A stretch of 64,000 nt of DNA from an uncultured Candidatus Binatia bacterium (GTDB taxonomy: Bacteria; Desulfobacterota; Binatia; Bin18), in the NCBI GenBank assembly GCA_965214605.1, contig OZ243961.1, positions 2,112,001-2,176,000 of the forward strand, read 5' to 3'. Below are positions 4,993 to 19,714 of the stretch, in pieces. Position 1 is the stretch's first letter; each line of letters starts with the position of its first letter. The notes beneath the pieces are model-generated. The model was not told the origin of the DNA, searched no databases, and saw only the letters and a program-made list of their open reading frames with translations. A program made the translations under genes and the position numbers.

Positions 4993-5736
4993 ATGATCAG
5001 TCGAATCGTTCTTATGTCGCTTGTGTTGCTGAGCCTGTGCTTTATGAGGGGCTGGTCGACTCCTGCCCAGGCTCAGTTCGACACCGGTCTTGAAGACTCC
5101 TTAGACGCACCCGCCCAGGTCTATAAAAATTCTCGGCTCGAAACCTTCAACGAAGCCATGTTTGACGTCAACCTGTGGCTGGACGAGAAACTCCTGCGGC
5201 CGGTTGCCAGGAGCTATGAAAAAGTCGTTCCTGAGGGCGCCCGTCTGGGCGCACGACGCTTCTTTCTCAATCTGGGCTTCATTCCGCGTGCCGCCAATAG
5301 CCTCCTTCAGCTCAAGTTCGACGGGGCGGCGCGAGAAGTGAGCCGCTTCATGCTCAACACGACAATCGGCGGACTCGGCTTCTTCGATGTGGCCAAGAAC
5401 CAGTTTGGGATTCAGGAGAGCAACGAAGACTTCGGGCAGACACTAGGCCATTACGGCGTAGAAGACGGAGGGTATCTTGTCCTCCCCTTTTTGGGTCCGT
5501 CAACCGTACGCGACACCGTGGGTTTTGTGATCGATGGAGCGATGGATCCCAAACAGTATATCCTGTCCGGCACACACAACTTTGCGATTAGTAGCGGAAC
5601 GACCGTCACCAACGCCGTCAACGAACGCTCGTTGAACCTAGAGCTGTTTGAGCAGGTTGATCGCTTCTCGCTGGATCTCTACAGCGCCGTCCAGGACTTC
5701 TACCTGCAGCGCAGAGAGCAGCTGATCGAGGAATAG
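4993..5736 (+). CDS. mlaA: VacJ/MlaA family outer-membrane lipid asymmetry protein
   Basis: LETFNEAMF, RFMLNTTIGGLGFFDVA, EDFGQTLG, YLVLPFLGPSTVRD, DLYSAVQDFYLQRR; N-terminal signal sequence. Confidence 0.93.
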   Translation: MISRIVLMSLVLLSLCFMRGWSTPAQAQFDTGLEDSLDAPAQVYKNSRLETFNEAMFDVNLWLDEKLLRPVARSYEKVVPEGARLGARRFFLNLGFIPRAANSLLQLKFDGAAREVSRFMLNTTIGGLGFFDVAKNQFGIQESNEDFGQTLGHYGVEDGGYLVLPFLGPSTVRDTVGFVIDGAMDPKQYILSGTHNFAISSGTTVTNAVNERSLNLELFEQVDRFSLDLYSAVQDFYLQRREQLIEE

Positions 5737-5742
5737 GGCGGC

Positions 5743-6369
5743 ATGCGATATCACCGAGAGATGATGATGGAGTTATGCCGCCGTCCGGTCCAAGTCTGGA
5801 TTTGGCTCGCCTTGGGTTTGGTACTCGCCTGTGCCGGACCGGCACAGGCCGAGACTCCGCCCCAAATGACACGGGAGTTGATCGAGTCTATTATCGCCTG
5901 TGCAACAGCGGACGGGGCTCAACCGAGCGGCTGTGATGTTGAAAAAATCGAGGGGCATCTGGCCCTCGCCCAGCTCGCCCGCTGGCTGATGGGCCCCCAC
6001 TGGCAGGATCTAGGCCAGCAAAAACAGAACGATTTCGCTGCCTTACTCGCCCGCCTGCTGCGTGATGTCGCCTATCCGCGAGCGGCCGAGTTCTTATCCA
6101 GCAATCAAATTGTGTACGGCCAGAATCATGTTGACGGTAAGGAAGCTATTGTTGAAACCTCGCTCGTCAACGCCGAAGAAGGGCAGGTCGTGATCAAGTA
6201 CCGCTTACACCTCATTGACGATAGGTGGAAAGTCTGGGACGTGTATCTCGACGGGGTGAGCATGGCAGGCAACCTGCGCAAACAGGTTCAGTCTATCATG
6301 GCTCGCAAGTCCTACGGGGAGTTGGTTGAGCGTATGCAGAAAAAACTCAATTGGGACGATCCTCAGTAG
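5743..6369 (+). CDS. mlaC: MlaC/Ttg2D (HpnM-like) periplasmic lipid shuttle
   Basis: Signal peptide, LMGPHWQDL..Q, IKYRLH..WKVWDVYLDGVSM; lies between mlaA and hpnN. Confidence 0.85.
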   Translation: MRYHREMMMELCRRPVQVWIWLALGLVLACAGPAQAETPPQMTRELIESIIACATADGAQPSGCDVEKIEGHLALAQLARWLMGPHWQDLGQQKQNDFAALLARLLRDVAYPRAAEFLSSNQIVYGQNHVDGKEAIVETSLVNAEEGQVVIKYRLHLIDDRWKVWDVYLDGVSMAGNLRKQVQSIMARKSYGELVERMQKKLNWDDPQ

Positions 6370-9215
6370 GCGGTGGAGAACCACGCGTGCCTTCGTCTGC
6401 CCCTTCTGCCCCCCTCTCTCCACCGCACTTGACGTGGGAACAGCATACCCTGCATTCCCTGGCCCGCCTGACCACGACCTATCCCATCACGATTCTGACC
6501 GTGTGCCTAGTCTTGGTCAGTGTGGCGCTGAGCTATACCGCCTCATATCTGGAGTTTGTCACTGGCCGGAATGAGCTCATTGACAGCAACAAGCCGTATA
6601 TCAAGCTAGAGGAGCAATACGCCGAGGAGTTTAGCAGCCTTGACCAGTTCTTCGTTGTGGTCGAGCCACAAGATATTGAGCAGGGCCAAGCCTTTATGGT
6701 CCGGCTTGGCGAGCTTCTGACCCGGGAGACGGGCTATATTGAGGACGTCTTCTATCAGGTTGATACCACCTCGCTCGACGGCAAAAAGCTCCTCTACCTG
6801 CCCACCGAGGACTTGCAGAGCCTATTCGGCGATATTTCCGACTCTCGGGATCTGATCCAGGAAATCACCGTCGCCCCGGGCCTCAACACCCTGTTTGAGG
6901 CTATTAACCGGCAGATCAGCGCCGCCACCGTCTCCCACCTCATTGGCAGCCTGTTGGGTCTAGGTCTTCCCGAAGACGAACCACAGGAGGAAAATCGAGA
7001 AACTCCGGACGAAACGCCGACGCCGCAGATCGGCCTTCTCAATTCTCTGCTGTATGAGATGGACCAGGCGCTCAGCAACCCGGCTCATCGCTATCAGTCA
7101 CCCTGGGAAGAGTTCTTTGGCGATACCCAAACGCTGTCGGACGAGGGCTTCCTCGTGTCCGGCAACCGTCAGTTTCTCTTCATGCTAGTCGAACCCGCAG
7201 ATCCGGAAGAGGCCGGACTGACCGAGCTGCAAGACGCCATTACTACGATTCGGCACATTATTCATGACTTGCGATCGGACTTCCCCGGACTCGACGCCGG
7301 TCTGACCGGCATTGAGGTCCTCGACACCGATGAGATGACCAGTGCCCAGAGCGATGCACCGGCGGCAACGCTCGCGACAGCGCTGGGTATTGGTCTATTG
7401 TATCTGACCTTTTTTCAGCGCATCAGGCACCCGGTTCTTATTCTCTCCTCGCTGCTGGTCGGACTATGCTGGACTATGGGCTTTGTCACCCTGGCGGTCG
7501 GTCACCTAACGATTATCAGCCTGTTTGTCGCTCCCCTGCTGCTAGGTTTAGCCGACGATTTCGGTGTCCACTTTATGACCCGCTACGAGGAAGAACGCGG
7601 CGCCGACAGAGACCCGATTGCTGCTCTCCATCAGGTCTATATTCATACTGGACCGAGCATTATCGCCGGGGCATCCACAACGGCTCTGGCCTTTGCAGCC
7701 ATTATGCTGGCCGATTTCCGAGGCATGCAAGAACTCGGCCTAATGTCCAGCGTCGGTATCTTGCTGTCCATGTTGGCCATGTTCAGCTTTCTGCCCGCTC
7801 TAGTCGTGGTAGTTGAGCGTATCCGTCCCTGGCGGGCGCACTCGACCCGCCCGAGTTTTTTGAGTACCCCCTTCACCGCGTTGGGGAGGCTGGTGGAGAA
7901 CAGGCGGCGGTCGGTTTTGGTGTTAGCTGGTCTGCTAACACTGGGGGCGCTGGGAGCACTCCCGACCGTTCGGTTTGACTACGACCTGCTCAACCTCCAA
8001 GCCCATGGCACCCCTTCGGTTGAGTGGGAGAGACGTATCATTGCCCATTCGGAACGCGCCTCCTGGAATGCCTTGGCAACGGCTTCAACCCCCCAGGCTG
8101 CCATGCGGAAAGCGGCAGCGTTTGAAGCCCTGCCAGTCGTCGAAACGGTCGAAAGTATGGCCTCTTTTATCCCCGCCGGTCAGGCTCAGCGGATGGCGCT
8201 GGTCCACGATCTACAGCCCCTGCTGGCTGACCTCCCCCCGGTTCTGGCGAGGCCCTCGCCCGTTATGGTGTTCGACCTCCAGCGTTCTCTTGATCAGATT
8301 CGGTTTAAAGTTCGAGAGAGTAATGAAGACTGGGACCCTGAAAAAAAACCTACAGAAAGTGAGTTGAGCACGGCCCGCAGCCGGCTGAAAACCATTGTCA
8401 CCCGTTTACAAAACCTCCCCCAGAACGAAGCCCGGGCTGCGCTCAGCCGGTTTCAGGCCGATCTGTTTCAAGATTTTGCCGATGTCTGGAGCCTCCTGTG
8501 GAATAATATCCATCCCTCCGGTCCAATTACTCTGGCCGATATTCCACCCCAGCTCAAAAAACGCTTTGTGAGCCGCAACGAGGACAAGTTCTTACTCCAG
8601 ATCTATCCCAAGCACAATATTCGTGAGCAGCAGGCGCTCGAAGCCTTCATCCAGCAGCTGCGCGAGGTTGACCCTGATGTCACGGGCTCGCCGGTCATTG
8701 GCTACGAGTCGATCCGTGCCATGCAGCAGGGCTATATCGAAGCCGCGATGTACGCCCTGATTGCGATTGTGATTGTCACCTTTAGTACCTTGCGGAGTGT
8801 CACCGATACCCTGCTTGCTCTCCTGCCGCTAGGTCTGGGGATGGTTTGGGCCGGCGGCCTGATGTGGCTGTGCAAGCTCCAGTTCAACGTTGCCAACCTG
8901 GTGGCCGCCCCCCTCATTATTGGCATCGGCATCGAAAACGGTATTCACCTCGTCCACCGTTTTCGAGAAGACCCGCAGACGACACCAGCCAGTTTAATCG
9001 CGGGCAGTACAGGCCAAGCTGTAGCCCTGTTTTCGCTAACGACTATGGTCGGCTTCGGTAGCCTGATGATCGCCAAATACTATGGCGTTTTTAGTATGGG
9101 CTTGCTACTGTCGTTGGCAGTAGGCGGCGTCCTGGTCGCCTCCCTTGTTGTGCTCCCGGCGTTTTTGTCTTGTCCGGCACGTCACAGGGCACCTTATGAG
9201 AGTGACCGCGCCTAG
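6351..9215 (+). CDS. hpnN: HpnN/MMPL family RND hopanoid transporter
   Basis: About 950 aa with two TM bundles, LLLGLADDFGVHFMTRYEEE, VRFDYDLLNLQ, VTGSPVIGYES, IIGIGIENGIHLVHRF; start may be GTG at 6387. Confidence 0.9.
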   Translation: MGRSSVGGGEPRVPSSAPSAPLSPPHLTWEQHTLHSLARLTTTYPITILTVCLVLVSVALSYTASYLEFVTGRNELIDSNKPYIKLEEQYAEEFSSLDQFFVVVEPQDIEQGQAFMVRLGELLTRETGYIEDVFYQVDTTSLDGKKLLYLPTEDLQSLFGDISDSRDLIQEITVAPGLNTLFEAINRQISAATVSHLIGSLLGLGLPEDEPQEENRETPDETPTPQIGLLNSLLYEMDQALSNPAHRYQSPWEEFFGDTQTLSDEGFLVSGNRQFLFMLVEPADPEEAGLTELQDAITTIRHIIHDLRSDFPGLDAGLTGIEVLDTDEMTSAQSDAPAATLATALGIGLLYLTFFQRIRHPVLILSSLLVGLCWTMGFVTLAVGHLTIISLFVAPLLLGLADDFGVHFMTRYEEERGADRDPIAALHQVYIHTGPSIIAGASTTALAFAAIMLADFRGMQELGLMSSVGILLSMLAMFSFLPALVVVVERIRPWRAHSTRPSFLSTPFTALGRLVENRRRSVLVLAGLLTLGALGALPTVRFDYDLLNLQAHGTPSVEWERRIIAHSERASWNALATASTPQAAMRKAAAFEALPVVETVESMASFIPAGQAQRMALVHDLQPLLADLPPVLARPSPVMVFDLQRSLDQIRFKVRESNEDWDPEKKPTESELSTARSRLKTIVTRLQNLPQNEARAALSRFQADLFQDFADVWSLLWNNIHPSGPITLADIPPQLKKRFVSRNEDKFLLQIYPKHNIREQQALEAFIQQLREVDPDVTGSPVIGYESIRAMQQGYIEAAMYALIAIVIVTFSTLRSVTDTLLALLPLGLGMVWAGGLMWLCKLQFNVANLVAAPLIIGIGIENGIHLVHRFREDPQTTPASLIAGSTGQAVALFSLTTMVGFGSLMIAKYYGVFSMGLLLSLAVGGVLVASLVVLPAFLSCPARHRAPYESDRA

Positions 9216-9220
9216 GCTGC

Positions 9221-9724
9221 ATGCGGAAAATTACCCCCATGATCATCGGGACCGACTTTCTCAAGACGCTGCGTGCTGAAGGCTTCGATTTTTTCACCGG
9301 AGTGCCCTGCTCGCTGGTCAAGAGTTTGATTGCCCGCCTCGAAGAGGAAGGGCCGTATATTCCGGAAACCCGCGAAGACGCAGCGGTCGGCCTAGCGGCT
9401 GGCGCCTATATGGCCGGTAAACAGCCAGTCGTTATCATGCAAAATTCGGCCTTAGGAGTGTGTCTCAACGCCCTCGCCTCGCTGAGTCTGATCTACGATC
9501 TGCCGTGTCTGTTGCTCGTCACCTGGCGCGGTTATCAGGGAAAAGACGCCCCCGAGCATCTCATCATGGGAAACATCTCCCCCCGCTTATTCGAGACCTT
9601 GCGCATTCCGTATCGGGTGTTGAGTGTCGAGACTACCATGCAAGACGCCGGGTGGGCTGCCGATATCATCCATCACGGCAAAAAACCGGTGGCTCTGTTA
9701 CTCCCTCCGGGGGTGCTTGAGTGA
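9221..9724 (+). CDS. TPP-dependent phosphonopyruvate/sulfopyruvate decarboxylase, alpha (N-terminal) subunit
   Basis: FFTGVPCSL, REDAAVGLAAGAYMAG, MQNSALG..NALASL, WRG..GKDAPEH. Confidence 0.88.
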   Translation: MRKITPMIIGTDFLKTLRAEGFDFFTGVPCSLVKSLIARLEEEGPYIPETREDAAVGLAAGAYMAGKQPVVIMQNSALGVCLNALASLSLIYDLPCLLLVTWRGYQGKDAPEHLIMGNISPRLFETLRIPYRVLSVETTMQDAGWAADIIHHGKKPVALLLPPGVLE

Positions 9725-10284
9725 AGCTGGCAGACGCCTTAGGGATAATGATTCCCCTGCTGCACGACGAGCTCGTCGTGCATGCCAACGGTTTTATTTC
9801 GCGTGAATCCTTCAATCTCAGTGACCGGCCGGGCAACTTCTATATGATCGGCTCTATGGGGCTTGCCTCATCTATCGGTCTGGGCGTTGCCCTCAATCGT
9901 CCCAATCGTCGTGTTGTGGTCTTTGACGGCGACGGCAATGTCCTCATGAATATGGGCTCCTTGGCACTGATTGGCGCCACCCAACCGCCCAACTTCGTTC
10001 ACATCGTTTTCGACAATGAAGCCTATGGCTCAACTGGTAATCAGCGCACGATCTCGGGTCAAGTCGCCCTGGAAGATATCGCCCGCTCCAGCGGCTACCA
10101 GCACGTCGGCAGGGTTGGCACACCGGGAGGTCTTAAAGCTGCGGCAGGCGAATTGCTCGGTCAGGCCGGACCCTCGTTTCTGTTAATTAAGATTGAACCT
10201 GACTGGCAAGAACGCAAAATCGGCCGTATCACGCACGAACCGCCCCAGATTGCGCGGCGATTTATCGAAGCCATTAAAAAATGA
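9721..10284 (+). CDS. TPP-dependent phosphonopyruvate/sulfopyruvate decarboxylase, beta subunit
   Basis: NGFISRE, NFYMIGSMGLASSIGLG, TPP motif DGDGNVLMNMGSL...DNEAYGSTGNQ; GTGA overlap with the alpha gene. Confidence 0.88.
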   Translation: MKLADALGIMIPLLHDELVVHANGFISRESFNLSDRPGNFYMIGSMGLASSIGLGVALNRPNRRVVVFDGDGNVLMNMGSLALIGATQPPNFVHIVFDNEAYGSTGNQRTISGQVALEDIARSSGYQHVGRVGTPGGLKAAAGELLGQAGPSFLLIKIEPDWQERKIGRITHEPPQIARRFIEAIKK

Positions 10285-10375
10285 AGAAACGTCGAATGAT
10301 AAAACGCAACGGTCAAAAGGAAGACACGGGAAAATACGGTTCTTCACGTGTTGACCCTTGACTTCTGAGTTCTCC

Positions 10376-11449
10376 ATGCAGCCCATCCTCCTCAACCCCG
10401 GCCCGGTTAACGTCTCCCCGTTCGTACAAGAGGCCCTTTTGGGTGGAGACCTCTGCCACCGTGAAGAAGAATTCTCAAACCTGTTGCGTGCCATCCGCTC
10501 AAAACTCCTCAAGGCCTTTGCCCACCAACACTATACCTCGGTCGTCATCAGCGGTTCAGGCACCTCAGCGGTAGAAGCAATGGTGTCCTCAGCCCTGCCC
10601 CCAGGGAAAAAACTCTTGGTCATCAATAACGGTGTCTACGGCGAGCGTATGCTACGTATGGCTAGAGCTCATAGAATACCAAGTGTCGAATTGCGCTACA
10701 GCTGGACCGAGCCACCCGACGTCGGTCAGATCGAATCCAGGCTTCAGGCTGATCCGTCTATCGGCGGTGTCGCCCTAGTCCATCATGAGACAACCACCGG
10801 ACTGTTGAATCCGGTTTCCGAGGTCGGATCCCTGACTAGGCGGCTAGACCGTGTGTTCCTCCTCGATGCGGTCAGCGCCTTGGCCGGCGAAGATCTCGAC
10901 CTTGTTCGCGACCAGGTCGATCTGTGTGCCTGTACGGCCAACAAATGTGTGCAAGGCTTGCCCGGTGTGGCCTTTGTTTTGGTTCGGTCTGCCCTGATGC
11001 GGGCTATGCAACACCACGAACCCAGCTCGCTCTCTCTTCACTTGCCTCTCCACTGGGAAGCCCAGGAACGCAACAGTGTCCCTTTTACGCCGTCGGTGCA
11101 AACCTGGTACGCCCTTAACGCCGCTCTTGATGAACTCCTAGAGGAAACTGTGGCGGCGCGTATCCAGCGCTACCGGGCGGCCTCGCAACTGCTGCGGGCA
11201 GGTTTCGATCGCCTGGGGCTGCGGTTTCTTTTGCCGCCCGAACTGCGGGTCAATTCGCTCACCGCGCTGTTCTTGCCTGACGACATGAGCTATCAAGACC
11301 TGCACGACCAACTCAAGAAACGTGGATTTGTTATCTATGAAGGTCAAGGTCAGCTCCGTCCCGATATCTTCCGGATTGCCAACATGGGGCATCTGAACCT
11401 TGACGACTTTCGCCGCTTCCTCCAAAGCCTCGAAGACGTTCTGCGCTAA
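10376..11449 (+). CDS. 2-aminoethylphosphonate-type class V PLP aminotransferase (PhnW/AepZ-like)
   Basis: ILLNPGPV, GSGTSAVEAM, NNGVYGERM, VHHETTTGLLNP, TANKCVQGLPG (PLP Lys), PFTP, GFVIYEGQG, FRIANMG. Confidence 0.88.
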   Translation: MQPILLNPGPVNVSPFVQEALLGGDLCHREEEFSNLLRAIRSKLLKAFAHQHYTSVVISGSGTSAVEAMVSSALPPGKKLLVINNGVYGERMLRMARAHRIPSVELRYSWTEPPDVGQIESRLQADPSIGGVALVHHETTTGLLNPVSEVGSLTRRLDRVFLLDAVSALAGEDLDLVRDQVDLCACTANKCVQGLPGVAFVLVRSALMRAMQHHEPSSLSLHLPLHWEAQERNSVPFTPSVQTWYALNAALDELLEETVAARIQRYRAASQLLRAGFDRLGLRFLLPPELRVNSLTALFLPDDMSYQDLHDQLKKRGFVIYEGQGQLRPDIFRIANMGHLNLDDFRRFLQSLEDVLR

Positions 11450-11474
11450 TCTTTTCAGGGCGTACGTACACGTT

Positions 11475-12212: not shown

Positions 12213-14025
12213 GCCGAATCCTCTTGTACCCTCTCCCTTCGTTACCAAAAAGATGTTCGTGATGTCCAATCGAACGAAATGCGCCCACGAACATCTTTTA
12301 CTCCCCTCCCCCCTCAGGCCCCTAGTCCGCCTGTCTCCACCCGCCCTAGCAAGCCTGTTTGTCATTGTGGCCGGTCTCATTTTCTTTTGGCGACTGGGCG
12401 AAGGACCAATTTATCGGACCATGGAAGGGCGGGAAGCCCTCGTTATGCAAGAGATGCTGCGTACCGGCAATTGGGTGCTGCCTTTACGCAACGGAGAGAC
12501 GATTCCTTCCAAGCCGCCGTTGGTGCACTGGGTTGGTGCCGGCGTTGCCCATCTGAGCGGGGAGATGTCGGAATGGGCAGCCCGATTTCCGTGTGCTCTG
12601 TTCTCGGCCCTGAGTGTCGGCCTGACCTGTTTCCTCGGCTGTCGGGTGGCCAATCGCGAGGTCGGCATCCTGGCCTCCCTGCTTGTCCTCACCACACCTC
12701 TGTTTGTCGAAATGGCCCGTGAAGCCTGGGTGGATTCGGCCTTGGCCTTTTTTGTCCTAGCCAGCCTCACCAGTTTTGCCTGTATGTATAAAGCCGACGA
12801 ATGGCAGGGTTGGCGAAGCCTGGCCTTTGCGCTGTCCCTAGCCGGCGCAAGCCTCAGCAAAGGACCGATTGGTATCATTCTGCCCGCTCTCGTGATCGGG
12901 CTCTACCTCACGGCTCAGGGGCAACTGTCGCGCATCCGGCAGCTGTTGAGCCCAACCAACGTCGTGGTGGCCGTTGGCATTCCGCTGACCTGGTACGCGC
13001 TAGCGCTCAACCAGGAGGGGTGGGCATTTTTTCAGAAGCAGCTCCTACAGGAAAACATCCTACGCTTTACCTCTGGCTCGGGCAAACGGATCCCTTCCTC
13101 CGCTTTTTTTTTCTTGCCGTTTGTCTTAAACGGATTGCCCTGGAGCCTGCTGTTCGGCTTTGGCTTGTGGCACTTTGCCCGTCAGGCCCCCATCCGGGAG
13201 AAGGGGGTGCTGGCCCTGCTGTGGTGCCTGGCCCTCATCGCTTTTTTTTCGATCGCGGCGGGCAAGCGTGACGTCTATCTGCTGCCCCTGTACCCGGCAA
13301 TGGCATTGTTTGCTGCGGAATGGGGCTGGCCGCGGGTTCCCCGCCAGACCGCACCACTCGCCTCCTGGCTGAGCGCCGGGCTTGTCCTAACCGCTCTCGG
13401 TGCCAGCTTAGCGACGCTGTTGGCTGCAGTCTCGGTCGCCCTTGACTGTCTCACCATTGACTCGGCTGCGGTGGAGCTGGTTTTTGGCGAGGACAAATGG
13501 AAGAGTGCGGCCCGGTTCATTCGTTTTGTGGACGAGCAGCCGGTGTATGGCACGACCTTGCTGGCCGTCTTGTGCAGCTGTGGGGTGGGGGCGGTTTGGG
13601 AGACGACTCGGGGCTTTTGGCAGACAAGCCTGTGGCTGGTGCTCTGTATGCTCCTGCTGACGACCGCCGGTCTGTATCCTTTTACCCGGGCGTACGCAAA
13701 AGAGTTTAAATCCTTAACCGGCTTTGCCACTCAGATCAGCCAGGCTGTTGGAGCTGAACAGCCACTGTTCTTTTACACTCCACAGACCTACTCTTCGGAG
13801 TTTGACGAATTTTCTCAGATCTATTTTTACCTGAACCGTCCGGTTCGCCTTGCTCCGTGCGCCGAACACAGCGACTTTTCGCGCTGTCAACCTGGCTATT
13901 ACGTGCTCCGGGAGCGGTTTTGGCGGTCGCTCCAACACACCCCGAACACCCGTCTGGTGGTCGACAGTCAAAGCGGCTCAGGACCGGACGCACGGCCACA
14001 CCTGGTGCTGGTTCGACGGGATTAA
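12193..14025 (+). CDS. ArnT/PMT family (GT-C) membrane glycosyltransferase
   Basis: EGREALVMQEM..GNWVLP..NG..KPPLVHW, SEWAARFP, LSKGPIG, KRDVYLLPLYP; true start probably downstream of 12193. Confidence 0.88.
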   Translation: MLLIGHRPNPLVPSPFVTKKMFVMSNRTKCAHEHLLLPSPLRPLVRLSPPALASLFVIVAGLIFFWRLGEGPIYRTMEGREALVMQEMLRTGNWVLPLRNGETIPSKPPLVHWVGAGVAHLSGEMSEWAARFPCALFSALSVGLTCFLGCRVANREVGILASLLVLTTPLFVEMAREAWVDSALAFFVLASLTSFACMYKADEWQGWRSLAFALSLAGASLSKGPIGIILPALVIGLYLTAQGQLSRIRQLLSPTNVVVAVGIPLTWYALALNQEGWAFFQKQLLQENILRFTSGSGKRIPSSAFFFLPFVLNGLPWSLLFGFGLWHFARQAPIREKGVLALLWCLALIAFFSIAAGKRDVYLLPLYPAMALFAAEWGWPRVPRQTAPLASWLSAGLVLTALGASLATLLAAVSVALDCLTIDSAAVELVFGEDKWKSAARFIRFVDEQPVYGTTLLAVLCSCGVGAVWETTRGFWQTSLWLVLCMLLLTTAGLYPFTRAYAKEFKSLTGFATQISQAVGAEQPLFFYTPQTYSSEFDEFSQIYFYLNRPVRLAPCAEHSDFSRCQPGYYVLRERFWRSLQHTPNTRLVVDSQSGSGPDARPHLVLVRRD

Positions 14026-14206: not shown

Positions 14207-14971
14207 ATGGCTCCTGAGGCATCACCCTCTCCCTCCTCCCCTCCCCCGCTTGGAGAACGTCCGGCTGGCCTGGTACAGAGCGGCTTTACCGCTTGGCTGC
14301 GCCGGCGGCGGCGGATATTGCCCATTCCTCTGTGTGTCCTCGTGCTCATATTCCTTCCCCCCACCTACCCTCTGGCTAGCCCGAAGCTTGACTTGGTCAG
14401 CGATATCTTTGGCACAGCGGTGTGTCTGCTCGGTCAGTGGATGCGGGGCTGGGCCTGGGGGAGTAATGCCGAAGTCGGCAAATTTGGCCTACGTGAACGC
14501 GGTCCATACGCGCTTATGCGTCATCCCCTGTACAGCGGCAACTTTCTCATTGTGCTGGGATTAGTCATAGTCTACCATAACCTGTGGGTCTATCCACTCT
14601 TTCTTCTGCCCTTTGCCTATCTGTACAACGCCATTACCAAGATGGAAGAACAACGCCTACACTGGCGCTTTACCCACGACTACGAAGGCTATCGGGAAGT
14701 CGCTGTGCCCCGCTTTATCCCAGCCCTGGCGCATCTGGGCAGGGCGGTCGACACAACGCTGCCATTTGGCTGGAAGCTGGCGTGGCGAAAAGAGTACGAG
14801 TCAGTATGCGGCTGGCTAGCTGGCATTATTGGTATTCAGATCTACGAACAGGTTGAGGCGTATGGCTGGATCGTCACCTGGCCCTCCACCCGCCTGTGGT
14901 TCAGCCTCTTAGTCGTGATCGGCCTTGCCAATGTGAGTCTCAAGACGCTGGGACGCCTGTCACGGCGTTGA
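14207..14971 (+). CDS. Isoprenylcysteine carboxyl/phospholipid methyltransferase family membrane protein
   Basis: GPYALMRHPLYSG, EE..L..RF..Y..Y...VPRFIP; multiple TM helices. Confidence 0.85.
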   Translation: MAPEASPSPSSPPPLGERPAGLVQSGFTAWLRRRRRILPIPLCVLVLIFLPPTYPLASPKLDLVSDIFGTAVCLLGQWMRGWAWGSNAEVGKFGLRERGPYALMRHPLYSGNFLIVLGLVIVYHNLWVYPLFLLPFAYLYNAITKMEEQRLHWRFTHDYEGYREVAVPRFIPALAHLGRAVDTTLPFGWKLAWRKEYESVCGWLAGIIGIQIYEQVEAYGWIVTWPSTRLWFSLLVVIGLANVSLKTLGRLSRR

Positions 14972-14975
14972 ACCT

Positions 14976-15863
14976 ATGACCGCTCTCAGGCGCAAACGCC
15001 TCATCGTCAATGGCGACGATTTTGGCCTGTCCGACCGGGTCAACGAGGCGATCCTCCACGCCCATCAGCACGGGATTCTGACCAATACCAGCCTGATGGT
15101 CGGCGCTCAGGCATGGCATGAGGCGGTCGAGTTGGCAAGGGCTACACCGAGCCTTCAGGTCGGGCTCCACCTGACCCTGGTCCAAGGTCAGTCGGTCCTA
15201 TCACACCGCCATATCCCACAGCTGACCGATCACAGCGGAAATTTTCTCCATAATCCGACCCGGGCCGGGCTGCGTTACTTCTTCTCGCCCCGCGCCCGGT
15301 CTCAAGTCCAGGACGAATGTCGGGCCCAAATCGAACGCTTTCTGGCCACCGGTTTACCGCTGGCCCATATTGATGGGCACGTCAATATACATCTGCATCC
15401 CGTCGTCTTGAACAGCCTGTTGGGTCTGGCCAAGGAATATGGCGTCCGGGCCATGCGGCTGACCCAGGAAGATCTGGCCTGTAGTCTGACGCTTGATCCA
15501 CGTGCTGCGATTCGCAAACGCTGGGAGTCCTTCATCTTTATCCGCCTGGCCCGACACGCGGAAAAGAAGCTGGCCGCGGCCGGCCTTGTCTGGCCGGATG
15601 CGCTGTTTGGACTACACCAGACCGGAAGAGTGGATGAACCCTACCTGCTGAAGCTCCTGCCCCGTCTCCAAGCCGGCGTTACCGAACTATACTGTCACCC
15701 CGCCTTTCTGCCCTGCCCGGAAGTCCAGCGCTGGACACCAGGCTATCGACGAGACGTCGAGTTAGCCGCCCTGACTAGCTGGGCCGTTCGGCAGATGCTC
15801 CAACACCAGGATATTGAGCTGATTGGCTACCGAGATCTGTACCAACAGGTTCATACCGCCTGA
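14976..15863 (+). CDS. hpnK: Hopanoid biosynthesis-associated deacetylase HpnK (YdjC/ChbG family)
   Basis: LIVNGDDFGL, GILTNTSLMV, VGLHLTLV, RAGLRYFF, HIDGHVNIHLHP, TELYCHP. Confidence 0.9.
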   Translation: MTALRRKRLIVNGDDFGLSDRVNEAILHAHQHGILTNTSLMVGAQAWHEAVELARATPSLQVGLHLTLVQGQSVLSHRHIPQLTDHSGNFLHNPTRAGLRYFFSPRARSQVQDECRAQIERFLATGLPLAHIDGHVNIHLHPVVLNSLLGLAKEYGVRAMRLTQEDLACSLTLDPRAAIRKRWESFIFIRLARHAEKKLAAAGLVWPDALFGLHQTGRVDEPYLLKLLPRLQAGVTELYCHPAFLPCPEVQRWTPGYRRDVELAALTSWAVRQMLQHQDIELIGYRDLYQQVHTA

Positions 15864-15893
15864 GCGTCACCCATTCGCCCGCTATCCGGCCCT

Positions 15894-17084
15894 CTAGTCA
15901 CAGCCGGGCTCCGAGGTTTCGCTATGTGAGACGTCGGGCAAGACGTCTGCGGCGTCAATGAGCACCATCGTGCCATCCCGACGAACCCGAAAGGTATGCT
16001 CTCGCCAGCGGACGGTGTTCCCGCCTAGACTCCAGACCCAAATCCCAAACGATAAGAGATCGGTGATAAGGACAAGTCCAAACGTCGTCGTTAGGGGGAG
16101 CCTGACGCCCAGAAAATATCGCCCTAGCAGCGTGGCCGAGAGACAACGGACCGCCAGAGTCAGTCCGGACAGGACAGCTAGAGGTGTTGCCCAACCAGAC
16201 ACAAGCCCTAGCACGGCCCAGACCGTACCATACGTCACCACCGTCCCCACATAGCCGGACGGGCGGCATACGCGTTGGGTACGCGCCCAGCGCAGCTGGT
16301 GGTACAAAAGTCCCCGCAGACTCGCGACATCGGGATAGGTCTCTACAACATAGGGCAGGATGCGTGCTTGATAGCCGGCTTGAGTGGCCAAGTTCCCCAG
16401 ATAATAATCATCGGCCAGATAATCGGCCAGAGCCGCAAAGCCCCCAATCGCCTCAACGCACGAACGTGTCACCGCTATGGTCGCACCAAAGGCGTACCTT
16501 GTCCTCTCGATTTGGCTGGCAAGTAGGACAGAAGGCATAAAGGAGGTATTGATCAGCACTGATTCGAGGAGAGCGGGCAGGGGCTGTCGAGTGGCGCTGC
16601 GGTACGGACAGGTCACGACTCCAACCTGTGGGCCGCTCAGGGGAGGAATGATACGCCGGAGATAGTCCGAAGCGACCCGAACGTCGCTGTCGCTGATCGC
16701 AAAAATATCATACTTGGCCTGCTGTGACAGAGAGTGCAGGGTGCTCACCTTATAATTGCTGCCGATCACCTCGGGATTGACAACGAGCGAGATATCACAC
16801 TCTGGGAAGTCGTGCTGTAAGCGTTGGACGACTGTAATCGCGGGATCACGCGGATCGCGAACGCCGAACAATAGCTGAAAAGCTGGATAATCGATTCGAC
16901 AGAAACTCGCCAAATGCCCGTACAAGTCGGGCGTCATTCCCTTGAGGGGTTTAAAGACAGAAACCGGCGGACACGCAACTGGGGAAGCTGGAAGCTGTCG
17001 AAACAGTCGCCAGGCAGCATACACAGACAAGAGGTAATACAGACAGGCTATACATAACAAAACGGCGAAAAATGTCGTGGCCAT
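15894..17084 (-). CDS. hpnI: Bacteriohopanetetrol glucosamine glycosyltransferase HpnI (GT21-like)
   Basis: PPVSVFKPLKG, IGSNYKVS, SDSDVRV, LADYLADDYYLG, HQLRWART; directly downstream of hpnJ. Confidence 0.9.
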   Translation of the reverse strand: MATTFFAVLLCIACLYYLLSVYAAWRLFRQLPASPVACPPVSVFKPLKGMTPDLYGHLASFCRIDYPAFQLLFGVRDPRDPAITVVQRLQHDFPECDISLVVNPEVIGSNYKVSTLHSLSQQAKYDIFAISDSDVRVASDYLRRIIPPLSGPQVGVVTCPYRSATRQPLPALLESVLINTSFMPSVLLASQIERTRYAFGATIAVTRSCVEAIGGFAALADYLADDYYLGNLATQAGYQARILPYVVETYPDVASLRGLLYHQLRWARTQRVCRPSGYVGTVVTYGTVWAVLGLVSGWATPLAVLSGLTLAVRCLSATLLGRYFLGVRLPLTTTFGLVLITDLLSFGIWVWSLGGNTVRWREHTFRVRRDGTMVLIDAADVLPDVSHSETSEPGCD

Positions 17085-17137
17085 AAGGTGGACAGACAGC
17101 GAGAGGAGTAATGCTCAGTCCCTTCTGGCAAGATGTC

Positions 17138-18583
17138 CTAGGCGGGTGGTGAGGCGCTCTTCCCAGTCATCTGACGTCGGGTGCGCATGGTCCGAAAAAA
17201 ATCTTTGCCTTCTTGCCACATCCGTTTTCGTTCTTCGGAATCAGTGGCCATCTTTTTAACGGCTTTCAAGATGTAGCGGGGACGCAGATAGTAGGAGGTG
17301 TAAAACCGCTCCACCGTCGAGAATATCTCCTCGCTCGACAGATGGGGATAATTCATCACACATTTTTGATAGCCCGTCTCGTCAACCATGTCTTCCGGTT
17401 TGATGAAGCCGTGCTCCACAGCGTGGTCGTAGAAGGCGGTACCGGGATAGGGCGAAGCTAAGGAGACCTGAATCGTCTCGGGGGCCATTTCTCGGGCAAA
17501 ACGCATGGTCTCTTGCATAGTTTCCCGCGTCTCACCGGGTAGGCCCAAGATAAACGTACCGTGAATCAAAATACCAAGCTTATGGCAGTCTTTGGTAAAG
17601 CGCCGTGCGGTTTCGAGCGCAACGCCTTTTTTAATGTTCTTCAGAATCTGGGCGTTGCCGGACTCATAGCCAATAACAAACAGGCGTAGTCCGCCCTCCT
17701 TCATGATCTTGAGCGTTTCGTAGTCAACATTCGCTCGCGAGTTTGTCGACCAACAGAGGCCCAGCGGTTTGAGTCGCCGGGCGATCTCCCGCGCCCGCTT
17801 GGGGTTGGCCGTAAAGGTGTCATCGTCAAAGAAAATCTCCTTCATACCCGGAAACAGACGGACCATTTCCCGGACCTCTGCAATGACATTGTCCACCGAG
17901 CGGGTCCGATACGCGTGACCAGTAGTGACCTGAGGCCACAGGCAGAAGGTACAGCGCGCCGGGCAACCACGGCCGGTATACAGGGACACATACGGGTACT
18001 GGCAGTAGGGGCTATTATACTTCCGGAAGTCCAGATCCCGGGCATAAATAGAGGTCACAAAAGGCAGACGGTCCAACTCCTCGCTGGTCAGCGGCGTCCG
18101 ATCGAGATTGTGCACAATCTGCCCATTCTTTCGATAGCTAATACCTCGAATCTGACCCCAGTCCAGGCCCTCGGCAACCTCTTTCATCGACCAGTCAAAC
18201 TCTTTGCGAGCAGCGATATCAATGGCTGTGGACGCTTGCAGGGTCTGGGCGGGCATGGAGGTTGGATGGCCGCCCACAAAAGCGACGACCGCCCCCGGAT
18301 TGCCGTCCTTGATCATCTCCGCGGTTTGCACATCCATTTTGAACGAGGGGGTACTGGTATGCAGGACAACGAAGTCATACGCCTTGGCAATCTCCACGCT
18401 CTGCGCTTGATTGAGCCCCTCAGGTGGAGCATCAAGCACACGGCTATTTTGAATCATACCAGCCGGATAACACAGCCAAGTTGGATACCAGAAGGACCAC
18501 ACCTCCCGCGTTGCCTGATACCGAGATCCCGCCCCACCGTCGAAGTTGTCGTAAGCCGGGGGGTTTAAGAACAACGTACGCAT
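17138..18583 (-). CDS. hpnJ: Hopanoid biosynthesis radical SAM protein HpnJ
   Basis: MRTLFLNPP..FDGGAGSRYQATRE..SFWYPTWL N-terminus; CPARCTFC cluster motif followed by LWPQ. Confidence 0.95.
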   Translation of the reverse strand: MRTLFLNPPAYDNFDGGAGSRYQATREVWSFWYPTWLCYPAGMIQNSRVLDAPPEGLNQAQSVEIAKAYDFVVLHTSTPSFKMDVQTAEMIKDGNPGAVVAFVGGHPTSMPAQTLQASTAIDIAARKEFDWSMKEVAEGLDWGQIRGISYRKNGQIVHNLDRTPLTSEELDRLPFVTSIYARDLDFRKYNSPYCQYPYVSLYTGRGCPARCTFCLWPQVTTGHAYRTRSVDNVIAEVREMVRLFPGMKEIFFDDDTFTANPKRAREIARRLKPLGLCWSTNSRANVDYETLKIMKEGGLRLFVIGYESGNAQILKNIKKGVALETARRFTKDCHKLGILIHGTFILGLPGETRETMQETMRFAREMAPETIQVSLASPYPGTAFYDHAVEHGFIKPEDMVDETGYQKCVMNYPHLSSEEIFSTVERFYTSYYLRPRYILKAVKKMATDSEERKRMWQEGKDFFRTMRTRRQMTGKSASPPA

Positions 18584-18612
18584 TCCCTTCTCCTTACCTC
18601 ATCTGCATCCAA

Positions 18613-18660
18613 GTCGCCCCCTTACATAACAAAGAACGGACAGCCGGCATAGGGGGCGAC
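18613..18660. repeat. Intergenic inverted repeat, REP-like
   Basis: GTCGCCCCCT (18613-18622) and AGGGGGCGAC (18651-18660) form a perfect 10-bp inverted repeat between hpnL and hpnJ. Confidence 0.5.
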
Positions 18661-18676
18661 GGCACAGCCCGACCGC

Positions 18677-19714
18677 CTAGGGCAGTGTCTCGGGTAGCAC
18701 CGGAGGAGGCTCCTCAGCCCGCCAGGCATAGCCGGCGCGTGTCAAGAAAACCAGACCGATCCCGTTATAGACCGCCTCCCGCGCCCGTTTCAGAACCATC
18801 AGGGCCAGCCCAGCCCCGACATCGATCCCGAGCATACGGCTCAAAAAGACCCCCGCGGTCTCTCTGACGCCCAGCGCACCGGGAATCACCAGAGCCGCAG
18901 CGGTCATAGGTTGCACCATGGATTCGATAATCAGCGCCTCGACCGGACTGACCCGTATACCGATCAGGGTAAAGATAACCCAGATTTCGACCGCTCCCAG
19001 CAACCAGCCCAACAGGTGGTACAGGGTTGCGGCGAGAAAGATATGCGGATTTCTGTCGTACAGCTGGCGCAACTGGGCATCGATACGCCGGGCCCCGGCT
19101 TGCCAGCGTTGCAGGGCGGACCAGGTTGGAAACCAGCGCCCCAGACCGCGAACAAGCTTTTCCATCAGACCGCGCCGCTGCCAATGGATCAGACCCAGGA
19201 CAAAGCCGTAGGAGACCGCCATTAGCAGACCCATCACCCACCAGCTGTGCAGCCCCCAGCCAAGGCGGAACAGAAAAAACGGCAGACCTATAAGAATAAA
19301 GATGACTTGAGACACGGTCAGCGCGGTTTTAGCCGCCACAACCGAGGCCATGCCCACCTCGGAACGAATCCCACGCCGGCGTAACAAGTAGACCTTGAAG
19401 GCTTCGCCGCCGATAGAGGCGGTCGGGGTGAGGTTATTGACCGACTCTCCAGCAATCCGGCTCAGCGAGAAATACCACAGCGGGATGGGGCGAACAGAGG
19501 CGTCTTGAGGAACTAGCCACGCCCAGCCTTTGGCGTCACATGCGGCAATAGCGGCGTAGGGCAGGAGCACGATTGGGGCGAACCAACCCAGCCGAACCAT
19601 GTAGCTGACAACATCAGACAGCCCTATCGTCCATGCCAAGACGCCGAGGAGGCCCAGGCCAACAGACACGGACAACAGTTGGATGCCACGGTGTTTGCTA
19701 GTGCTAATGGTCAT
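18677..19714 (-). CDS. HpnL-like lysylphosphatidylglycerol-synthase TM/flippase-like membrane protein
   Basis: RIAGESVNNLTPTASIGGE, IPGALGVRE, KRARE; many TM helices; upstream of hpnJ. Confidence 0.82.
   Translation of the reverse strand: MTISTSKHRGIQLLSVSVGLGLLGVLAWTIGLSDVVSYMVRLGWFAPIVLLPYAAIAACDAKGWAWLVPQDASVRPIPLWYFSLSRIAGESVNNLTPTASIGGEAFKVYLLRRRGIRSEVGMASVVAAKTALTVSQVIFILIGLPFFLFRLGWGLHSWWVMGLLMAVSYGFVLGLIHWQRRGLMEKLVRGLGRWFPTWSALQRWQAGARRIDAQLRQLYDRNPHIFLAATLYHLLGWLLGAVEIWVIFTLIGIRVSPVEALIIESMVQPMTAAALVIPGALGVRETAGVFLSRMLGIDVGAGLALMVLKRAREAVYNGIGLVFLTRAGYAWRAEEPPPVLPETLP

Follow-up and report, generated by a model that had tools for sequence, protein, structure and literature searches.

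Several described systems come close to parts of the locus considered here. The gene-cluster family known as 'Group 1 phosphonolipid' or 'Burkholderiales_CDP-OH', one of the ppm families and with a product given as uncharacterised, has a seven-gene core consisting of a Ppm-PntC fusion, Ppd, AEPT, a 2-oxoglutarate oxygenase, a second PntC and two phospholipid genes, according to the available text of Li & Horsman (2022, PMC8942020, citing Yu et al. 2013). The same text gives one sentence to Nitrosococcus GCF 731, in which a ppm/AEPT neighbourhood adjoins squalene synthase and cyclase genes, as a 'phosphonoterpene' hint (PMC8942020), so that the idea of a phosphonate-bearing triterpenoid has been voiced before; an antiSMASH 'phosphonate-terpene' call is also on record (PMC7285500). 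Among the single components, RhiEF is described as a characterised split phosphonopyruvate decarboxylase (PMC12141560), and in Tde-PntC two residues, Glu104 and Glu196, are reported to touch the amine of 2-aminoethylphosphonate (AEP) (PMC6697681). Export by MlaA, MlaC and HpnN, suggested in an initial annotation of this DNA, is not a new idea, being already in print as the HpnS/HpnM/HpnN proposal for hopanoid transport (bioRxiv 10.1101/2025.07.29.667474, in the part of the preprint available). The literature searched yielded no hopanoid that bears a phosphonate.

The window, that is the whole 64-kb stretch of Binatia DNA analysed, carries the following genes, and all those named in the initial annotation were confirmed in position and strand by ORF, Pfam and NCBIfam analysis.

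4993..5736, + strand: MlaA-family lipoprotein, 'HpnS' type of the Belin-lab preprint (PF04333, 216.5 bits, Pfam)
5743..6369, + strand: MlaC/HpnM-like periplasmic lipid carrier (PF05494, 75.6 bits)
6351..9215, + strand: HpnN-like RND (MMPL/HAE3) inner-membrane lipid transporter (TIGR03480, 562 bits; start codon uncertain)
9221..9724, + strand: split TPP decarboxylase, alpha subunit with the PYR domain (PF02776 TPP_enzyme_N)
9721..10284, + strand: split TPP decarboxylase, beta subunit with the PP domain (PF02775 TPP_enzyme_C)
10358..11449, + strand: class V aminotransferase, AepZ/PhnW type (TIGR03301 PhnW-AepZ, 359 bits)
11475..12212, + strand: PntC/LicC-like cytidylyltransferase, NTP_transf_3 (PF12804; ORF open from a TTG at 11400, homology from 11475)
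12193..14025, + strand: ArnT-like GT-C glycosyltransferase, PMT_2 (PF13231 and PF02366)
14207..14971, + strand: PEMT/ICMT-superfamily membrane methyltransferase (PF04191, 31 bits)
14976..15863, + strand: HpnK, BHT-N-acetylglucosamine deacetylase family (TIGR03473, 344 bits, cut-off 232.6)
15894..17084, - strand: HpnI, BHT glucosamine glycosyltransferase (TIGR03472, 387 bits, cut-off 310)
17138..18583, - strand: HpnJ, B12-binding radical SAM enzyme, cyclitol ether formation (TIGR03471, 723 bits, cut-off 577.6)
18677..19714, - strand: HpnL, LPG_synthase_TM, MprF-flippase-like membrane protein (TIGR03476, 194.5 bits, cut-off 195.65; PF03706, 107 bits)

Coding regions on the + strand abut or overlap, with gaps of -20 to 181 bases in the ORF list, including a 4-base overlap between the two decarboxylase ORFs (9221-9724 and 9721-10284). 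The HpnI, HpnJ and HpnL genes on the - strand converge toward the + strand run from MlaA to HpnK. A promoter and terminator scan of the locus gave nothing above chance level and lends no support to an operon structure. The RND protein scores below the cut-offs of both HpnN models (TIGR03480, 562 bits against 751.85; NF052374, 324 bits against 1100), and the MlaC-like protein, in which the MlaC domain itself is present, scores below that of the HpnM model (TIGR03481, 46.4 bits against 160.1); 'hpnN' and 'MlaC' are therefore used here as family-level names only. It also holds that pepM, shc, hpnH and a CDP-alcohol phosphotransferase are absent from the window: profiles for PEP_mutase, SQHop_cyclase, HpnH-type proteins and CDP-OH_P_transf had no match among the 22 + 38 window ORFs scanned, and tblastn with such proteins from other loci (PEP mutase, cyclase, HpnH and CDP-OH types) recovered nothing in the 64 kb.

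The middle genes of the run constitute an AEP-type module (Ppd alpha/beta, AEPT and a PntC-like enzyme), as judged by their best solved relatives and in line with the first proposal. The best PDB matches of the alpha and beta decarboxylase subunits are RhiE (9iz3_A, 4.5e-34) and RhiF (9iz3_B, 5.6e-35), the latter with the GDG...DN cofactor stretch aligned, and the pair is read from its sequence as a putative phosphonopyruvate decarboxylase (Ppd alpha/beta). The aminotransferase reaches 359.0 bits with TIGR03301, 1.8 below the cut-off of 360.8, and an orthologue in locus L065 reaches 372.8 bits, the catabolic PhnW model scoring lower (276) for the window protein. Its best PDB match is PhnW (1m32, 5.3e-69), the PntC-AEPT fusion Tde1415 also being matched (2.4e-60), and the Asp, Lys and Arg aligned to positions 167, 193 and 339 of the 1m32 sequence are conserved. 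These we take to be Asp168 (at the cofactor), Lys194 (the PLP lysine) and Arg340 (which binds the acid group) of the Salmonella AEPT. The protein encoded from 11475 has a weak best match (55 bits, 3.4e-14 to 5.5e-14) to the CMP-AEP synthase (PntC) domain of Tde1415 (6pd1), with MurU (8hhd, 5.4e-09) and LicC (1jyk, 6.7e-09) ranked lower; aligned with Tde-PntC, it has Glu at the Glu196 position and Asp, as in LicC, at the Glu104 position. We consider it probable that the module makes CMP-AEP.

The distribution of the arrangement was analysed in a comparison set of 80 loci, 30 of them Binatia-type. Upstream of the decarboxylase, all 24 Binatia-type loci with 2.5 kb or more of flanking sequence have an RND gene; on the downstream side, hpnK and hpnI are present in 19 of the 25 that extend 4 kb or more in that direction. 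The aminotransferase is present in 28 and the PntC-like NTP gene in 22 of the 30. In the other six of the 25 loci with enough flank, hpnK/I/J are missing and the RND, MlaC and decarboxylase/aminotransferase genes are kept, two of these loci (L010 and L011) having an OEP gene in place of MlaA. Within the Binatia-type set identity is as low as 64-74% among the decarboxylases and about 50% among the RND and MlaC proteins, and the gene order holds. Thus, as the initial annotation had suggested checking, the module is found again in other Binatia genomes, stably flanked by hopanoid-type export genes on one side and hpnK/I/J/L on the other, and the arrangement of the window is not due to chance. MlaA genes occur in 17 of the 80 loci, all Binatia-type.

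Outside Binatia, Scalinduaceae and an unclassified MAG have related modules that adjoin other hopanoid genes. Locus L054 combines the module with CDP-OH_P_transf, HpnI, HpnK and HpnJ, and loci L047 and L067 have it together with HpnH (428 bits, cut-off 225) and an HpnG-like gene. In locus L074, which has no aminotransferase gene, shc, hpnH, hpnL-like, MMPL, OEP and MlaC genes surround decarboxylase, NTP and CDP-OH_P_transf genes. Loci L039, L059 and L074, each with a module of this kind, also encode HpnL-family proteins. A CDP-OH_P_transf gene follows the module in 14 of the 80 loci; neither a CDP-alcohol phosphotransferase nor a LicD-type enzyme was found in the window, and among the 30 Binatia-type loci one (L033) has such an enzyme.

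From the gene families and their conserved order we infer the following chemistry. A PepM-PntC fusion whose gene lies at another chromosomal site would supply phosphonopyruvate. The split decarboxylase (9221-10284) would convert this to phosphonoacetaldehyde, from which the AepZ-type transaminase (10358-11449) would form AEP, and the PntC-like enzyme (11475-12212) would activate AEP as CMP-AEP. HpnI, HpnK and HpnJ would provide bacteriohopanetetrol (BHT) derivatives, namely BHT-glucosamine and BHT-cyclitol ether. The aminoethylphosphonyl group would then be transferred to the hydroxyl of a lipid, an extended hopanoid being the likeliest acceptor; in relatives this step is presumably carried out by the CDP-alcohol phosphotransferase encoded directly after pntC, an enzyme absent from the window. 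HpnL is similar to the flippase domain of MprF and may flip the amine-bearing lipid, and the HpnN-like RND, the MlaC-like carrier and MlaA may move it to the outer membrane. As a whole, the statement that the locus is a single envelope-lipid unit, in which an operon for tailoring hopanoid side chains and exporting the product has taken in a pathway for an AEP head group, hopanoid acceptor included, is plausible, if somewhat short of an even chance.

The probable role of the ArnT-like GT-C and the PEMT/ICMT-like methyltransferase is to attach a sugar and a methyl group to this lipid or to a neighbouring one of the envelope. The sole PDB match of the GT-C is ArnT (5ezm, 7.9e-23), and its 107.5 bits with the ArnT model NF009784 fall below the cut-off of 567, which places it in the GT-C/PMT_2 family only; the methyltransferase scores 61 bits with the LmtA model (cut-off 325) and its nearest Atlas clusters are generic PEMT/ICMT. 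Both had been listed as parts of the module, a role given up here: the GT-C occurs in five and the methyltransferase in three of the 80 loci, in one of which (L008) they accompany an Arn-like aminosugar set, and they are lineage-specific additions.

The alternative that survives best, possible though in our view doubtful, is that CMP-AEP is made and the acceptor is lipid A, a glycan or a 'Group 1 phosphonolipid'-type glycerolipid, with RND/MlaC/MlaA (or OEP) as its dedicated exporter and hpnK/I/J/L as neighbours that share an envelope function or regulation. It draws on the fact that the tightest linkage is that of the RND gene and the module, which persists in the six Binatia-type loci devoid of hpnK/I/J, and on the sub-threshold HpnN scores of the RND protein. 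Also, seven of the 11 anammox loci have the five-gene module with no hopanoid gene detected by tblastn within 10 kb, and the three of these scanned with NCBIfam (L055, L061 and L078) have housekeeping neighbours. Locus L039 (PepM-PntC fusion, Ppd, AEPT, second PntC, CDP-OH_P_transf, LPG_synthase_TM) resembles the Group 1 cluster as outlined in the available text of PMC8942020, and the GT-C and methyltransferase are most like the lipid A modifiers ArnT and LmtA. However, the best solved relatives of the RND protein are HpnN structures (6wu0, 2.8e-50, and 5khn), far ahead of MmpL4, and the Binatia module is enclosed in the run from the export genes to hpnK, with a few bases between genes. Moreover, separate lineages have different hopanoid genes beside the module (hpnI/K/J, hpnH/G or shc), a pattern that is hard to explain without a shared product.

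Returning to the module itself, it is improbable that the decarboxylase acts on a substrate other than phosphonopyruvate, either as a ComDE-type enzyme leading to a taurine-like head group or on 3-phosphohydroxypyruvate, in a route to phosphoethanolamine and CDP-ethanolamine that dispenses with PepM. The models are nearly tied: with the Ppd model TIGR03297, built on fused enzymes and here scored against single halves, the alpha and beta subunits reach 125.0 and 172.8 bits (cut-off 312.5), and they reach 123.1 bits with ComD (cut-off 147.95) and 178.5 bits with ComE (cut-off 221.5). In addition, 36 Nitrospinota loci have the same split pair with neither aminotransferase nor pepM, at one of the positions that contact the amine the PntC-like enzyme shares its Asp with LicC, and pepM was not found within 10 kb of the module in 78 of the 80 loci, among them all 30 of Binatia type, nor in the 64-kb window. 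Against this, both Com scores lie below their cut-offs, no domain of ComA/ComB/ComC-type, cysteate or sulfolactate enzymes was found among the 60 window ORFs scanned, and the aminotransferase is AEP-type by model and by solved relatives. The split architecture, at first called ComD/ComE-like, is no pointer to ComDE, as the characterised split enzyme RhiEF, in the available description, is a phosphonopyruvate decarboxylase. The Binatia decarboxylase clade has as its sister in the tree the enzyme of locus L039 (support 100/98), whose gene directly adjoins that of a PepM-PntC fusion, and the taurine or sulfonate reading is therefore unlikely.

Such a fusion stands beside the module in two of the 80 loci (L039 and L059), and others come from records named Binatia (GIW42232.1, MCS6927129.1, MGE0827291.1 and HKA56383.1). 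Three more are on contigs of 5,135,574, 3,084,234 and 1,957,954 bases; contigs of these same lengths carry, in this order, orthologues of the window's decarboxylase with 86, 83 and 84% identity, so that in three close relatives fusion and orthologue appear, from the equal base counts, to share a contig, which also speaks for phosphonopyruvate. The contig of the window (4,312,128 bases) is not among the PepM-bearing contigs found. To our knowledge, nucleotidyl activation of this kind has no example for a sulfonate, which counts against that variant, and the phosphohydroxypyruvate route is speculation for which we know of no precedent.

Least probable of all is that two or three unrelated gene sets (for export, AEP and hopanoid tailoring) were joined in an ancestor of Binatia and kept by inheritance only: the 19 hpn-linked Binatia-type loci could share one ancestral arrangement, because upstream flanking genes are common to them, and the promoter and terminator scan gave no sign of an operon, but gene order was kept despite the divergence given above, coding regions abut or overlap, and Scalinduaceae and L074 each acquired their own juxtaposition of the module and other hopanoid genes.

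A phosphono-decorated hopanoid locus, as first proposed, thus keeps its AEP-type module and its stable embedding in Binatia, and loses support for a ComDE reading of the split pair and the GT-C and methyltransferase as core parts. The presence of genes for AEP, which has a carbon-phosphorus bond, amid hopanoid tailoring and export genes hints at an undescribed type of membrane lipid. Tentatively, and with a good deal of doubt, Binatia, marine anammox bacteria (Scalinduaceae) and some other uncultured lineages may make C-P composite hopanoids, in which a CDP-alcohol phosphotransferase would join AEP from CMP-AEP by an ester bond to BHT, BHT-glucosamine or BHT-cyclitol ether. An HpnL-type protein would flip the product, and a dedicated route of HpnN-like/MlaC/MlaA or OEP proteins would export it. 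If this is true, some or even all of the 'Group 1 phosphonolipids' would be phosphono-hopanoids, and sediments could hold a new, chemically robust biomarker tying hopanoids to the phosphorus redox cycle.

Compared with known systems, the window encodes the HpnI/HpnK/HpnJ route to BHT-glucosamine and BHT-cyclitol ether with all three proteins passing NCBIfam cut-offs, and we know of no version of that route with a phosphonate step. RhiEF (PDB 9IZ3/9IZ4) is likewise a two-subunit TPP enzyme, and both subunits in the window have it as their best solved relative; it comes from Bacillus, serves a diffusible antifungal peptide (rhizocticin) and is encoded with ppm, as far as described in the available text (PMC12141560), whereas the window pair belongs to an envelope-lipid locus without ppm. 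The Pnt pathway shares with the window a logic in which AEP is activated as CMP-AEP and then passed on to a molecule of the cell surface, Tde1415 being the closest solved relative of the 11475 protein, but the match is weak, Asp replaces one amine-contacting Glu, the window proteins are separate where Tde1415 is a fusion, and the known Pnt clusters, in the part of the source available, point to glycans via LicD-like enzymes (PMC6697681). The HpnN-HpnM-HpnS proposal has the same triad of RND, MlaC-like and MlaA-like proteins beside hopanoid genes and, in the available part of the preprint, covers Proteobacteria (bioRxiv 10.1101/2025.07.29.667474); the triad of the window is from Binatia, falls below the HpnN and HpnM cut-offs and forms one gene run with an AEP pathway. 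The Nitrosococcus hint, set apart from the window by its description, is a one-line speculation from a ppm-centred RefSeq survey that, in the text available, leaves side-chain (hpnH/I/J/K) and export genes unanalysed, found no compound and has Binatia and anammox bacteria outside its coverage. The window shares Ppd, AEPT and a free PntC with the Group 1 clusters as given in the same text, and its relatives L039, L059 and the Scalinduaceae loci add the Ppm-PntC fusion and the CDP-alcohol phosphotransferase. The window differs from the Group 1 core in having a single PntC and no Ppm(-PntC), 2-oxoglutarate oxygenase or CDP-OH_P_transf, and also in its Ppd, which is split in two, and in the position of its module, between HpnN/HpnM/HpnS-type export genes and hpnK/I/J/L.

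The genes of the locus were called by ORF listing together with Pfam and NCBIfam profile scans of the window, and by these means every gene named in the initial annotation was recovered in its place and on its strand:

4993-5736, plus strand, MlaA (ORF/Pfam/NCBIfam)
5743-6369, plus strand, MlaC-like protein (ORF/Pfam/NCBIfam)
6351-9215, plus strand, HpnN-like RND transporter (ORF/Pfam/NCBIfam)
9221-9724, plus strand, N-domain ORF of the TPP decarboxylase (4-base overlap with the C-domain ORF)
9721-10284, plus strand, C-domain ORF of the TPP decarboxylase (4-base overlap with the N-domain ORF)
10358-11449, plus strand, class V aminotransferase (ORF/Pfam/NCBIfam)
ORF open from 11400, homology from 11475, plus strand, NTP_transf_3 protein (ORF/Pfam and PDB alignments)
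12193-14025, plus strand, PMT_2/ArnT-like GT-C (ORF/Pfam/NCBIfam)
14207-14971, plus strand, PEMT/ICMT-like membrane methyltransferase (ORF/Pfam/NCBIfam)
14976-15863, plus strand, HpnK (above the NCBIfam cut-off)
15894-19714, converging from the right on the plus-strand run, HpnI, HpnJ and HpnL (NCBIfam)

Curated NCBIfam cut-offs are exceeded by HpnI, HpnJ and HpnK, with HpnL, a member of the family of the MprF flippase domain (Pfam), falling one bit short. The RND transporter scores 562 against a cut-off of 752 in the HpnN model and the MlaC-like protein 46 against 160 in the HpnM model, so these two are referred to only as HpnN-like and HpnM-like. No PEP mutase, squalene-hopene cyclase, HpnH or CDP-alcohol phosphotransferase occurs among the 38 further window ORFs scanned, each 130 aa or longer (37 in the part from 22.5 kb to the end, and a partial ORF at 10-525), nor did such proteins from other loci give any tblastn match within the window, in agreement with the initial annotation, which had seen no pepM, shc, hpnH or CDP-alcohol phosphotransferase there. 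Between 3000 and 22000, promoter-like sites (8, with 7.3 expected) and terminator-like sites (28, with 17.3 expected) are in no case located at gene boundaries and provide no evidence of an operon.

Directly upstream of mlaA (829-4918) lies a five-gene block encoding an alpha/beta hydrolase, an SCP-x-type thiolase, a PHP-family protein and two MaoC/HadAB-like hydratase subunits, which resembles steroid side-chain degradation sets and whose synteny with the lipid locus extends to 18-19 of the 30 Binatia-type loci described below. The gene that precedes hpnL on its strand, at a distance of 16 bases, is a 176-aa ORF (19731-20261) consisting only of an NAD-binding domain of the 3-hydroxyisobutyrate/6-phosphogluconate dehydrogenase type. 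Its product, which is either cut short or naturally of this size, is kept at 55% identity in a Binatia-type locus (L014). Elsewhere in the window, the genes at 24904-31600 (MeaB, B12-dependent acyl-CoA mutase, glyoxalase-type epimerase, HpcH/citrate-lyase-beta-like lyase and acyl-CoA dehydrogenase) look like an ethylmalonyl-CoA or methylmalonyl-CoA pathway set. The stretch 50878-58043 contains long ORFs (736, 705, 579, 374 and 251 aa) lacking a Pfam match at 1e-5 and has an unusual AT skew of up to 0.167. At 58203-61879, a LuxE-like acyl-protein synthetase, a LuxC-like acyl-CoA reductase and a class III aminotransferase are encoded side by side and may form a route from fatty aldehyde to fatty amine.

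The best solved relative of both decarboxylase subunits is 9iz3 (PDB search, 4.5e-34 and 5.6e-35), described in a review as RhiEF, the heterodimeric phosphonopyruvate decarboxylase (Ppd) of rhizocticin biosynthesis and a homologue of the split sulfopyruvate decarboxylase ComDE (PMC12141560). Since this characterized Ppd is itself heterodimeric, the split architecture is no argument for ComDE and cannot serve as a pointer to a taurine variant, which the initial annotation had left open on that ground. Curated Ppd and ComD/ComE models give like scores on the window decarboxylase, every one below its cut-off, and do not separate the two readings (NCBIfam). The aminotransferase reaches 359 bits with the AepZ-type model (cut-off 360.8) and only 276 bits with the catabolic PhnW model (NCBIfam). 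Its best solved relatives are transaminases of 2-aminoethylphosphonate (AEP; 1m32 at 5.3e-69), and alignment with 1m32, the Salmonella enzyme, shows conservation of the Asp, Lys and Arg that we take to be the cofactor and substrate contacts of that enzyme. Among solved structures, the nucleotidyltransferase is closest to the PntC domain of the Treponema PntC-AEPT fusion (6pd1, 3.4e-14), with MurU and LicC behind. Two Glu residues touch the AEP amine in the 6pd1 structure (PMC6697681); in the window protein one of these aligns with Glu and the other with Asp, as in LicC.

A scan with the decarboxylase beta subunit, one genome per species, recovered 80 loci (L001-L080), the closest of which belong to Candidatus Binatia MAGs and complete chromosomes (84-85% identity), which assigns the window to Binatia. 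Thirty are of Binatia type (L001-L029 and L033), including some under other record labels that group with Binatia in the decarboxylase tree. Five of the loci (L006, L009, L012, L014 and L027) are titled "uncultured Enterobacteriaceae bacterium", a label that is probably wrong: all five share the Binatia synteny, and those placed in the tree (L009, L012, L014 and L027) fall inside Binatia. Gene occurrence was assessed by tblastn of the window proteins at a query coverage of at least 50%. The RND gene lies upstream in 24 of the 30 Binatia-type loci, the other six having less than 1.9 kb of upstream sequence, and the aminotransferase is found in 28, the other two ending within 401 bases. The nucleotidyltransferase occurs in 22 and is missing from four with more than 6 kb of flank. 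Of the 25 loci whose downstream sequence reaches 4 kb or more, 19 have both hpnK and hpnI, so that the order of RND gene, module and hpnK/hpnI seen in the window recurs in Binatia.

Outside Binatia, the decarboxylase occurs in 11 anammox Planctomycetota (Scalinduaceae and Anammoxibacter), one member of the Myxococcales (L039), one unclassified MAG (L074) and 37 Nitrospinota or Nitrospirota. In a maximum-likelihood tree of the concatenated subunits (77 of 81 sequences, four having been left out for a subunit match below 80% query coverage), L039 is sister to all 29 Binatia-type sequences including the window (support 100/98) and L074 branches next (93/91). The anammox sequences form one clade, which L059 (Anammoxibacter) joins weakly (84/47), and 36 Nitrospinota-type sequences form a separate one (100/99). 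These 36 loci (within L030-L080; e.g. L050:8564-10564) carry the decarboxylase pair without aminotransferase, nucleotidyltransferase or pepM, always after an NAD-dependent epimerase/dehydratase gene and with a pyruvate phosphate dikinase and an ABC exporter nearby.

Hopanoid genes also accompany the module outside Binatia, in varying combinations. In L054 it occurs with a CDP-OH_P_transf gene, HpnI, HpnK, a radical SAM protein and HpnJ, and in L047 and L067 HpnH (428 bits, cut-off 225) and an HpnG-like phosphorylase are encoded a few kb upstream. The unclassified MAG L074 carries shc, polyprenyl synthase, HpnH and HpnL-like genes, followed by the decarboxylase, CDP-OH_P_transf and an MMPL transporter and then by nucleotidyltransferase, OEP and MlaC genes, with no class V aminotransferase. 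In 14 of the 80 loci, only one of them of Binatia type (L033), the next gene after the module encodes or is followed by one encoding a CDP-alcohol phosphotransferase. In three Scalindua loci, a dehydrogenase of the SagB type (nitroreductase-like, about 550 aa) is encoded after this enzyme (L055:10058-11725, L061:13090-14730 and L078:13178-14821) and may act in head-group tailoring. Inside the module of L059 (10595-11581) and of the deep Binatia locus L033 (13036-14028), a 328-330-aa protein with weak squalene-hopene-cyclase repeats, 42% identical between the two, could be hopanoid-binding or prenyl-handling.

The strongest rival to a hopanoid product is an AEP lipid of another kind with its own HpnN-like exporter. 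The link between RND gene and module is the most constant feature of the locus and outlasts the loss of hpnK/I/J: the six Binatia-type loci without hpnK and hpnI (L004, L005, L008, L010, L011 and L012) keep the decarboxylase and aminotransferase genes, and the four with enough upstream flank (L004, L005, L010 and L011) also keep RND and MlaC genes, a TolC-like OEP taking the place of MlaA in L010 and L011. Likewise, none of the hopanoid queries found a tblastn match in seven of the 11 anammox loci; in three of these (L055, L061 and L078) the five-gene module and the SagB-like dehydrogenase stand among housekeeping genes (NCBIfam).

PEP mutase, the expected source of phosphonopyruvate, adjoins the module in two of the 80 loci. 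The gene immediately before the decarboxylase pair of L039 encodes a PepM-PntC fusion, and the pair is followed by aminotransferase, second nucleotidyltransferase, CDP-alcohol phosphotransferase and HpnL-like genes; in L059 such a fusion is encoded 2 kb upstream. With the L039 PepM as protein query, the matches included fusions named as Binatia (GIW42232.1, MCS6927129.1, MGE0827291.1 and HKA56383.1) and others on contigs of 3,084,234, 1,957,954 and 5,135,574 bases. On contigs of exactly these sizes, the decarboxylase orthologue shares 83, 84 and 86% identity with that of the window, suggesting that close relatives carry pepM-pntC elsewhere on the same chromosome, the contigs being equated by equal base count rather than by DNA reading. 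The window's own contig (4,312,128 bases) is not among the PepM members listed in 30 clusters, which cover the best 120 of thousands of matches and list 15 of 27 and 15 of 23 members for two of the clusters. A Scalindua PepM-PntC fusion exists although tblastn finds no pepM within 10 kb in 10 of the 11 anammox loci, which provides a precedent for an unlinked pepM.

A non-phosphonate substrate of the decarboxylase, sulfopyruvate or, more speculatively, 3-phosphohydroxypyruvate, is unlikely in view of the AEP-type aminotransferase, the pepM-adjacent sister locus L039 and the PepM genes of close relatives, though less firmly so for the genome of the window. Shared inheritance alone, with no functional tie, is also unlikely given the separate juxtapositions with hopanoid genes in other phyla and the abutting reading frames.

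The initial annotation had listed the GT-C and the membrane methyltransferase alongside the head-group genes; they occur in only five and three of the 80 loci, respectively. In L008 these two genes are followed (5726-10630) by a DegT aminotransferase-GT2 fusion, a GFO/IDH/MocA oxidoreductase and another GT-C, a set resembling the Arn route for a polyprenyl-phosphate aminosugar. Given this rarity and this company, both are read as a lineage-specific addition, probably for sugar and methyl transfer on an envelope lipid, and not as the missing phosphonyl transferase. The methyltransferase matched only generic PEMT/ICMT clusters in an Atlas search and gave no useful PDB match. The GT-C was also considered as the missing AEP transferase and rejected, being confined to those five loci, standing beside a CDP-alcohol phosphotransferase in L033 and accompanying the Arn-like set in L008.

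For the AEP-hopanoid reading, the likeliest of those considered, we infer every chemical step, the acceptor and, in the genome of the window, the missing transferase from gene identities and synteny. An unlinked PepM-PntC would supply phosphonopyruvate. Decarboxylation and transamination would turn this into AEP, the nucleotidyltransferase would activate the AEP as CMP-AEP, and the aminoethylphosphonyl group would then be handed to a lipid hydroxyl. CDP-alcohol phosphotransferases use CMP-AEP in eukaryotic phosphonolipid synthesis and would be the obvious catalysts of this transfer where encoded. The neighbouring genes suggest an extended hopanoid as the acceptor. HpnL and the RND/MlaC/MlaA triad would carry the product outward, the triad matching the HpnN/HpnM/HpnS hopanoid transport proposed in a preprint (bioRxiv 10.1101/2025.07.29.667474).

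Hopanoids rank among the major lipids of membranes and among the major molecular fossils; to our knowledge none bears a phosphorus-containing head group. None was found in the literature searched, nor was any joining of hopanoids with phosphonopyruvate decarboxylase; among the matches listed, no title on pepM and hopanoids had a phosphonate topic and no paper joined bacteriohopane terms with phosphonolipid or AEP terms. The Binatota literature examined held nothing on pepM or hopanoid head groups. The compound itself would be new, if it exists. A conserved AEP pathway in a hopanoid tailoring and export locus offers a concrete target testable by mass, with candidate organisms, and gives HpnL and a second, HpnN-like exporter a possible role. 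The locus also shows that a ppm-centred survey overlooks modules encoded at a distance from their ppm on the chromosome.

Lipids or glycans are the presumed targets of about half of the phosphonate gene clusters of bacteria, and the largest lipid-type groups are described as having no known product (PMC8942020). For Nitrosococcus GCF 731, the same survey remarks in one sentence that the squalene synthase and cyclases "hint at a possible phosphonoterpene" (PMC8942020); the genome paper cited there has a "phosphonate-terpene" call by antiSMASH (PMC7285500). The "Burkholderiales_CDP-OH" (Group 1 phosphonolipid) core of Li & Horsman, for which these authors report no characterized product, comprises a Ppm-PntC fusion, Ppd, AEPT, an oxygenase, a second PntC and two phospholipid genes (PMC8942020). 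The window module is like that core, but stands apart from its ppm, has a split Ppd and is instead built into the hopanoid tailoring and export locus of an uncultured phylum.
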